Assembly: GCA_024679065.1 (NCBI GenBank)
Contig: JAGIQG010000009.1
Span: 53,816,001-53,880,000, forward strand
DNA from: Sphyrna mokarran
Lineage: Eukaryota
DNA: 64,000 nucleotides
Direction of reading: 5' to 3'
The translations under genes and the position numbers were made by a program. Below are positions 24,347 to 27,800 of the stretch, in pieces (the stretch's first letter is position 1; the number at the start of each line of letters is the position of its first letter). The notes below the pieces were generated by a model. It ran no database searches, was not told the DNA's origin, and worked only from the letters and a program-made list of their open reading frames with translations.

Positions 24347-24392
24347 GACATTTCGAATCCAGATGACCCTTTGTCAAAGCTAAAAGGCATAG
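24347..24392 (-). ncRNA. Truncated hammerhead-ribozyme-like motif (family B) in the PTGS2 3'UTR, sense strand
   Basis: The mRNA strand reads AGCU-UUGACAA-A-GGGUC-aucug-GAUUC-GAAA-UGUC and is then unrelated. 46/46 identical to 25796-25841. Confidence 0.55.
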
Positions 24393-24472
24393 GGTAAATA
24401 AGCCAGGTGTAATGTCTCCACCATTATTCTAGAGTCGTTTATAATTCATTCATCCAATTAAAAATAAGCTTT

Positions 24473-24891
24473 TTAAAGTTCTGTTGATTGCTCTTTCAAT
24501 AGTGCATGCCCCTGTGGATTAACATTGTTCAGACCTGAATTGGAAGATTTGGGACTGATAGAGCCTTGTTTGTTGGGTATAGATTCAGGAACACTGAATG
24601 AAACCATCGGGCAAGACCCCTTTATATTGTTGCAGACCAATTTGCTCAGTGATGCAGTATTCACAATGTCAAAACCAACTTTCCCACCAAAAGTACTAGG
24701 TTTCCAATATTCTGGGGAGCAAATGACGTTCCCCATTAAACCCTTCAAAGAGAAAGGGGCCCCCATCTCAACCATTGTTTCTCCAAATATGGATCCAGGT
24801 CTTGGTTTTTCTATCATCAAAGCAGGATACATTTCTATTGCATCAATATCCCCATAAAGTTCTCTCAGCTCAGCTGCCATCTCTTTTTCCC
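24473..24891 (-). CDS. PTGS2: PTGS2 exon 10 coding part
   Basis: ttacag|[29 protein letters not shown] ... KEQSTEL then TAA. Confidence 0.97.
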
Positions 24892-27800
24892 CTGTAATAC
24901 AAAGAAGAAATTGCAATGAAGTATAACAAATACCAAAAACTTAAAAGCTATTTTAAATGCAATTATGGAAAAGATTTAAATATGTTCTTAAACAAACCTA
25001 AGCGAGGATATTTTAGGTATCATGCATTTTCATTATCAGATGGTCTGTATCATGGTGCTTTTCATAGAAATAGAAATCCTACAGTACAGAAAGAGGCCAT
25101 TCGGCCCATCAAGATTGCACTGACCACAATCCCACCCAGGCCCTACTCCCACATATTTACCCATGAACCCCTCTAACCTACGCATCTCAGGACACTAAGG
25201 GCAATTTTAGCATGGCCAATCAACCTAACCTGCACATTTTTGGACTGTGGGAAGAAACCAGAGCACCCGAAGGAAACCCATGCAGATACGAGGAGAACGT
25301 GTAAATTTTACAGACAGTGAGCCGAGCCAGGAATCGAACCCGGGTCCCTGGAGCCGTGAAGCAGCAGTACTAACCACTGTGTTACTGTGCCACCCAGGAT
25401 AGTTCCACAAGTTCAGATGATCTCTGCTATAAATCTTTGACATGATCAACAAGCAGAGACTAAGGAGTCAGCTTAGTGAGGCATCTCACTCTTTCAAAAA
25501 AATGGAACACTCCACACTGTATTCAGGTGAGCTATGGACTGAGAAATTTGTAGGAATTGAGAAATTTGCCATCGGGTGGTGCATTTATCTACAAAATGGT
25601 AGCGTTTACTTTCACTTGAAATTTGTATCCTGGCCATGAGAATGAGAGTGGGCAGCTGAATATTTTCCAGTTTTTGTCCTCAGCATTAAACACTCACTGG
25701 TGAGGTTTTGCACAAATCAGCAGAAGAGTAAAGATGTAACCAAAAGAGAAAATGCTGGAAAATCTCAGCAGCTCTGGCAGCAGAAAAAAAGAGCTGACAT
25801 TTCGAATCCAGATGACCCTTTGTCAAAGCTAAAAGGCATAGAGAGTGGGGTGTAAAAAGGTGTTGTCTAAAAGGCATAAAAATGGGGGTGGGGTGTAAAG
25901 GGGTGTCTACTCTTTCCAGGATTGCAGCTTAACTCCCAATATCAGAAACATGACAGGCGGGATTTTCCAGCCACGTTCACCCCAAAACCGAAAAATCCCT
26001 CCCGAGGTCAATGAATCTTTCCATGGTCATCCCTCGCCCACTCCAATTCCCATAGCAGGCAGAACAGGAAAATTCAACCTGTATGTTGTCATATAACACC
26101 GTGTTGGCATTGCTATAACATTAATCATGGAAGAGTTTGCCCATTCAATACAATTACATGATAGATGCATATACAAAAAAATTGTAATTGGTTTAAGAAT
26201 ATTCCATTCTGTTGTATGAAGCATAGCATCAGAGAGGATGCCTTCAAATTCAGATTGAGCTAGATCAGATCCCAGAATTTAAAATAAAAAAATAGCCTGC
26301 TCTAATTGATCTTTACCCCTTTTGGTTATATTTGAATTGAATCAAATATTGTTTAAATACAATTTACAGATTAATATACAGATAAAAACTGTACCTGTAA
26401 GATCTTCAAAAGACTCATATGGTTTCATTAAGAAGCGTTTCCTATATTCATTCAGAGATTTGTAACGCATCTGTCGAGTTTGCTCAATAGTAGCGATAGC
26501 CACTTTAATCAATGCTGCATTCATATTTCTGCCTCCAGCAACCTATAGAAATATGAGGATCATTAACTTAACAGCCGCATGAATCCAACAGTTTCACTTA
26601 ATACTGTGAAGGATTTTGTTCTATTTATGAATACTGTGGAATATATTATTCTTTTTAGTCAAAGGTGCATTTTGTTTCTATAGTTACTGAGTTAAGAGAG
26701 TTGGGAGGTGAAGTGAAGCCAAAATTAACAGCAATATAAGGTTTACAATATGGGAGGTGTATATATTTGACACCAGCAGTTCATTATTGCAACAGAAATT
26801 ACTTTCTGTTCTTTTCTTTCCACTATGAGCTGATTCTTACCCTGCCAGCAATTTGCCTGGTGAATGAATCCACCATGTTGGTGATGCCATGTTCCAGCAA
26901 TACTGAGTTATTGAAGAGGAATTCACTGTAACTGTAGTCTCTATTCTCAATGTTGAAAGAATCTGGCATGAGGGGATGCCAATGGTAGAGGGTGTTGAAC
27001 TCTGAAGCAATCCGGTTACTGTACTGGAATTGCTGGTCGAAGAGTAGTTCTGGATCAAATTTCAGCTTGAAATGATAACCGCTTAGATGTTGTACATAAT
27101 CTTCAATGATAATTTTGATGGTCTCTCCTGTAAGCATTAACAACAGTTTGAGGATTTATTTAAAAGCAGCATATTCATGACAAAACTTTTATTTATTCCA
27201 ACTAAACTTCTAAATTGTACAGTTCTATGAATATCTATTTTGCTGTTACATGCAGGACATTGTCTCTGCACCTTAGTATACATTTGTCCAAAAGATCAGG
27301 AGCTATTTTCAAAGGCAGTTGGGTTCACTCACCTATCAGTATAAGTCGGGCTGTTTGAAACAGTCGTTCATCGTCCCAATCAGGATGCTCCACTTTCAAC
27401 ACATCACAGACGCGATTATGTTCCCGCAACCAGATTGTTGCATACATCATCAATCCTGGAACCAATCCAAAGAATTCCTGTCCCACAGCAAACTGCAAGT
27501 GTTCAGGGACATGAGGAGGATAAGTCATCTCTACCCCACTATCTTTAACAGTGGGAGGGTAGACTTCCCCATTGCAAACCTGCAATTAATTTTTGTGGAT
27601 TAGTTAAGATTTCACATAGAGCATATTGAAATAATGAAAAATAAATCAAAGATACCTGGACATGAACATGTAAATGTTACTGCCCTATTAAAATACATGA
27701 CAAGAAGCTCAGATCAAAGTACCTGAAACTTAAGTTTTCCATCTGTAAATAGTCTCAGTTTGTGCTGTCTGTCTAAAGTTTCTCCATAAACATGGCTCAG

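Follow-up and report, generated by a model that had tools for sequence, protein, structure and literature searches.

Minimal type I hammerhead ribozymes were described in the end repeats (pLTRs) of metazoan Penelope-like elements (PLEs) by Cervera and de la Pena in 2014 (PMC4209133). The motif described there possesses a 4-bp stem I, an unpaired base before stem II, a G10.1–C11.1 pair, a palindrome at positions 15.2–16.2 and no stem III, is found mostly in single truncated copies, and occurs with a U3–A8 core in the PLEs of Schistosoma. Proximal repair-mediated duplications (Pace, Sen, Batzer and Feschotte 2009; PMC2671141) derive from a single donor that stays intact, are lineage-specific with an empty orthologous site, and combine a deletion, filler and microhomology with the lack of poly(A). 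Their donors lay within 5 kb in 824 of 1,136 duplicons, with a peak near 1.2 kb, and their breakpoints comprised deletions of 1–15 nt, fillers of 1–68 nt and microhomologies of 2–9 nt. Junctions of the SD-MMEJ or polymerase-theta type (PMC5728401, PMC11724301) are known to contain snap-back (inverted) and trans (direct) tracts whose templates lie no more than 30 bp from the break; they close through a 3-bp microhomology, and their ancestral sites carry an inverted repeat. In class 2 templated sequence insertion polymorphisms (PMC5110952), a microdeletion and microhomology occur without poly(A) and without a target-site duplication of at least 5 bp; the donors lie far away, and an RNA origin is proposed for them. 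Split hammerheads in the 3′ UTRs of rodent lectin genes (PMC2920678) comprise an enzyme-like and a substrate-like segment on one transcript, which lie wholly within the UTR, hundreds of nucleotides apart, keep their tertiary contacts and are active.

The locus described here lies in a 64,000-nt stretch of DNA from Sphyrna mokarran (the window), in which part of a PLE in the last intron of PTGS2 recurs in the 3′ UTR of the same gene. The UTR copy is very probably a repair-mediated duplication that patched a germline break from the intron PLE 1.45 kb away, and the hammerhead fragment that it carried is predicted to be inactive. What is new is one instance; the kind is already known, namely a proximal repair-mediated duplication, here with a decayed Penelope hammerhead as the donor. 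All the features listed above for such duplications are shared. The differences are the donor-derived length of 46 bp (56 bp new overall), below the 50-bp floor of that survey, which is an operational threshold and not a mechanistic criterion; the 1-nt junction microhomology; the hammerhead motif as donor; and the 3′ UTR as acceptor, which accounts for 2 of their 824 acceptors. The survey, in its available text, includes no shark-type genome.

The features listed for the SD-MMEJ insertions are likewise shared, whereas an extra tract here comes from 1.45 kb away and polymerase theta is only a putative agent. The site has in common with the class 2 insertions the microdeletion, the microhomology and the lack of both poly(A) and a target-site duplication of at least 5 bp, but its donor is local. 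The donor motif shares the features of the PLE hammerheads, with the palindrome present in the family, but U3–A8 is the majority state of the shark family and stem II has 5 bp; the available main text of PMC4209133 makes no mention of sharks. Compared with the rodent split hammerheads, the helices here would be of 4 bp, the pairs are decayed, the segments lie 1.45 kb apart across an exon, and the arrangement is confined to one species.

A 46-bp identity within PTGS2

PTGS2, the gene of COX-2, lies on the minus strand. A PDB search with the last exon placed COX-2 (E = 5e-56) above COX-1 (E = 1e-47), with the COX-2 match extending over the whole 139 aa, including the C-terminal insert. The last intron, which we take to be intron 9 by mammalian numbering, contains at positions 25796–25841 a segment that is identical over exactly 46 bp to the UTR copy, at a spacing of 1,449 bp. 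The initial annotation had reported this identity, with both copies sense to PTGS2 and the UTR copy starting 80 nt past the stop, and the letters bear it out, the stop codon being TAA. An exact search with a 45-nt query matched the 2.77-Gb genome twice, both times at the PTGS2 locus, which excludes a homogeneous repeat family as the source of the identity. Both copies also carry the same two C-to-T changes relative to the family majority. The further claim that the UTR copy stops precisely after GUC stands in so far as the identity does stop there; however, the last C (24347) belongs equally to the acceptor, so that the donor-only part comprises 44 nt (24348–24391).

Table 1. Positions of the gene parts, the two copies and the associated features in the window
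Feature	Position	Strand	Basis and remarks
New mRNA hairpin, 10-bp stem of 24393–24402 with 24333–24342	24333..24402	-	Predicted; pair probabilities 0.97–0.99 in the 1601-nt fold; encloses the UTR copy
Filler, 11 bp	24336..24346	.	Templated from the flanks; chance estimates and ancestral letters
UTR (acceptor) copy	24347..24392	-	46 bp, equal to 25796–25841; first and last base common with the acceptor site (1-nt microhomologies)
Surviving arm of the ancestral 7-bp inverted repeat	24401..24407	-	Partner in the deleted 10 bp; letters of X4, X11, X13 and X17 and the loose end of X8, by eye
PTGS2 last exon, coding part	24473..24891	-	Translation, PDB search and splice joint; C-terminus ...EQSTEL-stop
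PTGS2 last intron, 1503 nt, GT..AG	24892..26394	-	Contigs of runs X1 and X4 splice over these 1503 nt
Donor: 5′-truncated end repeat (pLTR) of a Penelope-like element	25739..25849	-	Alignment to natural copy L020; weak similarity on to 25712
Minimal type I hammerhead motif, U3–A8 core	25792..25830	-	Sequence, family counts and folding; stem I of 4 bp, stem II of 5 bp including two G-U pairs, monomer without stem III

The UTR copy is present in a second individual of the species. Run X1, which comes from another study, yielded a spliced contig of 1,879 nt that crosses the site without any difference or gap; its match over 23900–24890 is likewise free of differences, and the insertion is thus part of the mature mRNA. 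An assembly artefact would fit the form of the copy, which exactly duplicates a short piece of a nearby repeat, and about 3% of the raw reads of run X23 gave no cover of the junctions, but this independent contig leaves an artefact next to no probability.

The run comparison covered 8 of the 23 listed runs. Contigs of six other organisms (B to G) all show an empty site, and the 46-mer is absent from the PTGS2 UTR in each of them. These contigs leave the reference at 24335 and return at about 24392. The replaced letters number 10 in B, D, E and the loose end of C, 13 in F (which rejoins at 24395) and 16 in G; the ancestral letters themselves are seen in five of the six, D giving the 10-letter gap alone. 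In B, contigs covering 25820–26423 and 25370–25764 lie on both sides of the intron element and reach into it. The intron element therefore predates the UTR copy and served as its donor; in the relatives, contigs break in the repeat and leave the middle of the element unread.

The Penelope-like donor and its hammerhead motif

The motif in the intron copy comprises all the parts of a minimal type I hammerhead, with a U3–A8 rather than a C3–G8 core, the GAAA, the UH and stems I and II, and the predicted scissile bond lies between 25796 and 25795. The stem lengths and G-U pairs agree with those read in the initial annotation, as does the assignment to the Penelope type of minimal hammerhead, which matches the available description in PMC4209133. 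The motif was recognized by pattern and by the literature description alone; a covariance-model search of the window (Rfam cmscan, E ≤ 10) returned five matches, none of which is a hammerhead. The UTR copy falls outside this class through the missing 3′ strand of stem I. Cores with U3–A8 are active in vitro (PMC3088659, available parts), and a rescue by the C3U/G8A double mutation was not found in the open-licence literature.

Across the genome, a 30-nt pattern with U3–A8 has 282 exact matches and its C3–G8 form, in the same context, has one; a looser pattern has 1,472. These counts rule out the decay of a canonical C3–G8 core to U3–A8 in the intron copy. Among 90 copies selected with a downstream anchor, U3 is present in 65 of the 69 that cover it and A8 in 67 of 73, a majority from which U3–A8 is taken to be the family state. 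The core letters are kept in 19 of the 90 copies, and the core with all three stems pairable in 2. By inspection the intron copy passes this test and is better preserved than most. One of its two C-to-T changes adds a G-U pair to stem II; the other breaks the dimer palindrome at 15.2–16.2, which is changed from ACGU to AUGU in both PTGS2 copies and can form G-U pairs only.

The donor family is assigned to the EN+ Penelope-like elements on the following sequence features. In longer copies the shared sequence extends upstream for as much as 1.5 kb, the limit of the loci compared, and contains decayed pieces of open reading frames. A Pfam search of 12 such pieces gave a weak GIY-YIG match in two (E = 0.0075 and 0.12) and neither a reverse transcriptase nor a GIY-YIG match in the other 10. 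A longer relative (P0002, 58% identical) contains RVT_1 (E = 9e-5, below the cut-off) followed by GIY-YIG (above the cut-off), the order expected upstream of the repeat, and the hammerhead motif lies 90–610 nt past the endonuclease match at five of seven endonuclease loci, with a sixth farther away. Truncated 5′ ends and inverted 5′ partner copies are also found.

The endonuclease region of the family has 31,339 first-look candidates genome-wide. This number, together with at least 1,472 close copies, would make the UTR copy conceivable as an independent truncated PLE insertion. Such an origin is very unlikely: the exact 45-mer is confined to the two places in PTGS2, family copies run 55–100 nt beyond GUC in all 30 core-anchored and all 30 upstream-anchored cases, and the UTR site has a deletion and templated filler.

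A separate observation concerns the 5′ ends of the family copies, which cluster at the boundary of the hammerhead, 30 nt downstream of a TATA box; 38 of 90 lie 33–38 nt before the cut, at the 5′ edge of stem I. This clustering is relevant to the mechanism by which PLEs transpose.

Anatomy and origin of the UTR copy

At the UTR site, 10 ancestral bases were replaced by 56 new ones, comprising the 46-mer and the 11-base filler. Positions 24333–24342 are an inverted copy of 24393–24402 (10 nt; chance 0.00018) and 24338–24344 a direct copy of 24326–24332 (7 nt; chance 0.04), both within about 30 bp. By eye against the letters of the relatives, 24344–24347 repeats four bases of the ancestral site, and every one of the 56 new bases is matched by the donor or the flanks. 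Three G's, also by eye, flank the 44-nt donor-only core on both sides, which makes C17 a 1-nt microhomology with the acceptor. The junctions comprise a 3-nt and two 1-nt microhomologies, with no poly(A/T), and the duplication is not tandem. A pre-existing 22-bp palindrome as the target of insertion was ruled out, as the relatives show that one of its arms was created by the event.

The initial annotation had offered a local templated copy as one origin of the UTR copy, and this is the best-supported one, with the donor 1,449 bp away and the filler copied from the flanks. The event would have begun with a DNA break in the germline, in the proximal COX-2 3′ UTR, possibly favoured by the ancestral 7-bp inverted repeat, and 44–46 bases would have been copied from the old intron element. 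The sense-strand 3′ end after ...UUUACCC would have invaded the donor at a 1-nt match and copied it up to C17. The strand would then have returned to the other break end at CCCA through the 1-nt match at the C17 position and slipped to AUGG, before it snapped back on itself through a 5-bp match and was closed by the 3-bp microhomology. The product is as would be expected of synthesis-dependent, polymerase-theta-type end joining. The most economical account of the snap-back has the sense strand as the growing one, in which case the template would be antisense DNA or cDNA and not the pre-mRNA. The donor-junction microhomologies, at 1 nt only, fall under the 2–9 nt of Pace et al., and the steps that depend on them are statistically insecure. 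The work on templated sequence insertions (PMC5110952, available parts), which argues that patches at breaks with such junctions often derive from RNA, counts against a DNA template.

An internal control is provided by locus L185, where 50 bp are identical to part of another family copy at a distance of 871 bp. This duplicate includes 24 bp of flank and ends 8 nt before C17; it represents the same kind of event with an end off the scissile site.

The finding was chosen because the GUC end looked special. By hand count, an end at the scissile base has a chance of 1–2 in 93 placements within the element, or 1–2 in 16 when only tracts that include the complete core are counted. Among the 1,472 copies, 21 have non-family letters after GUC, of which 20 resume the family sequence and the remaining one is the UTR copy; no other copy ending at C17 was found with this filter, which sees about half of such ends. 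At a control site 8–10 nt before C17, true ends occur in 4 of 30 copies, L185 among them; 30 of 31 control matches were taken in, and of five apparent ends among them that of L189 was dropped, as its family sequence resumes after an insert. The control pattern differs from the C17 pattern, so that the end rates are not strictly comparable. A second control, just after stem I, has ends in 0 of 2 matches. In the sample of 90 copies, none begins at the scissile site and 5 begin within 3 nt of it. The GUC stop is weak evidence of a ribozyme origin.

These counts bear on the other origin suggested in the initial annotation, a self-cleaved 5′ product. The intron hammerhead would have cut the pre-mRNA, the 5′ product would have been reverse-transcribed from its GUC end by the element's reverse transcriptase or polymerase theta, and the short cDNA would have patched a break in the same gene. 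The end at C17 is consistent with this course, and a sense strand reading the cDNA would run off exactly at GUC. Donor and acceptor also share one transcription unit and sense, the intron copy has lost none of its core bases and ranks with the best-preserved copies, the U3–A8 core can be active in vitro (PMC3088659, available parts), and RNA-derived break patches are documented (PMC5110952, available parts). Against it, C17 is explained equally by the match to the acceptor CCCA, no second end or start at the scissile site accompanies this one in the counts above, and L185 is a like duplicate with a different end. Single minimal hammerheads, moreover, were without detectable cleavage in the available text of PMC4209133, and the fold-back filler points to sense-strand synthesis, which would require an extra cDNA step. 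We regard a cleavage-product origin as unlikely, with a small residual weight. If true, it would be in vivo evidence of minimal PLE hammerheads cutting host transcripts, and cleavage products would seed RNA-templated repair in cis.

Folding of the two copies and of the proximal 3′ UTR

The initial annotation had further proposed that the two copies could come together in the pre-mRNA as a split or dimeric hammerhead, in which the UTR half cuts the last intron and tunes COX-2 output, an arrangement reminiscent of the split hammerheads of a rodent lectin gene, presumably Clec2. The topology is possible, with the UTR copy as the enzyme strand and the intron copy supplying GUC and the 3′ strand of stem I. 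Split hammerheads are known in rodent lectin 3′ UTRs (PMC2920678), and minimal PLE hammerheads are proposed to work as dimers (PMC4209133, available parts), the monomer here being unable to close stem III over a two-base loop. However, only eight pairs would join the copies (4 bp in stem I and 4 bp in stem III), two of them G-U, over 1.45 kb, and the ACGU palindrome used by dimers is decayed. Folding with nearest-neighbour energies, which leave out tertiary contacts, gave the trans stems I and III a probability below 1e-5 in a 1601-nt stretch of the pre-mRNA; stem II of the UTR copy had a probability of 0.03, against the high values of the flanking hairpin (Table 1), and stem I in cis in the intron copy one of 0.10–0.21. 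The active junction is predicted at −1.6 kcal/mol compared with −2.9 kcal/mol for stem II alone, 1.3 kcal/mol worse, whereas a family-type copy gains −3.0 kcal/mol. Even adjacent intact dimers and trimers cleave weakly (PMC4209133, available parts), and neither the stable helices nor the conservation of the rodent case is found here, the UTR copy being absent from all six relatives. A split ribozyme coupling splicing to COX-2 output is therefore extremely improbable.

Contig depth on either side of the intron site is 43.6 and 66.1 in X1 and 19.6 and 26 in X4, a measure unsuited to show cleavage or level.

The effect of the repair-mediated duplication on the mRNA is likely structural and not catalytic, and the ribozyme fragment in the UTR copy is probably ordinary. 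Mammalian COX-2 mRNA is regulated through AU-rich elements and stem-loops. The ancestral site comprised a stem-loop with AUUUA in the loop; it was replaced by the 10-bp stem, which in the predicted fold pairs the AUUUA at 24399–24395 and thereby buries it. Nine other AUUUA pentamers are present downstream within the 2.5 kb scanned, and because of them the effect of the changed stem on COX-2 output may be nil. The rebuilt proximal stem-loop around AUUUA would thus represent a small species difference rather than a new mechanism. On this reading, the locus provides a local repair duplication that is fully traceable and now forms part of the mRNA of an inflammation gene.

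Family 5′ ends at the hammerhead boundary

Across the Penelope-like family (loci L093–L182), the 5′ ends of the copies cluster at the hammerhead's 5′ boundary. The 5′ end lies 33–38 nt before the scissile bond in 38 of these 90 copies, and 17 of the 90 have the AGCU of stem I as their very first bases. Among the longer copies, whose loci include the upstream part, the only ones in which the spacing was scored (n = 26), the TATA motif TATAAATA is located 30 nt upstream of the A of this AGCU in 25, a spacing that the copies share by descent and that therefore counts as one observation. 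The pile-up of 5′ ends is likely to reflect transcription start at the ribozyme boundary; alternatively, it could arise from snap-back at the self-complementary AGCT. Transcription start at the boundary would produce short RNAs, which would then be copied with the hammerhead still uncut.

Variation at the core and the scissile site

A single match to C3–G8 (L033) was found in the sequence context of the U3–A8 pattern of the family. This copy is a member of a related subfamily whose 3′ part differs, and C3–G8 versus U3–A8 represents covariation between subfamilies. In several copies of loci L034–L053 (for example, L035, L036, L040, L043, L044, L046, L047 and L050), small deletions begin directly after the GUC position. 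Microhomology of TC or CT can account for these deletions, but they are nonetheless located at the scissile site.

Locus L185 contains a second local duplicate, with two identical 50-bp stretches (minus strand, approximately 630 and 1500) separated by 871 bp. The duplicate comprises 24 bp of flank and 26 bp of a family hammerhead, and stops 8 nt short of C17, the predicted scissile position.

Other repeats of the window

The last intron of PTGS2 contains a tRNA-related SINE, of which numerous further copies are present within the 64-kb window.

Repeat features of the window
Feature	Position	Description
Tandem duplication	25830–25915	Imperfect, local, ~45 nt; upstream of the PTGS2 intron element, including its first bases
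tRNA-related SINE	25130–25400	High-copy
Decayed pLTR copies	31567–31640, 43287–43374, 46403–46493, 63599–63686	Same family as the PTGS2 intron element, or a related one
Direct repeat	1431–2162, 21868–22599	~730 bp, 93–94% identity, 20.4 kb apart; appears to be the 3′ end of a young retroelement in two copies
Long inverted repeat	53249–55016	Arms ~375 nt, 93–94%, ~1 kb between; probably a DNA transposon
Pair resembling the inverted repeat	33691–33998, 39015–39322
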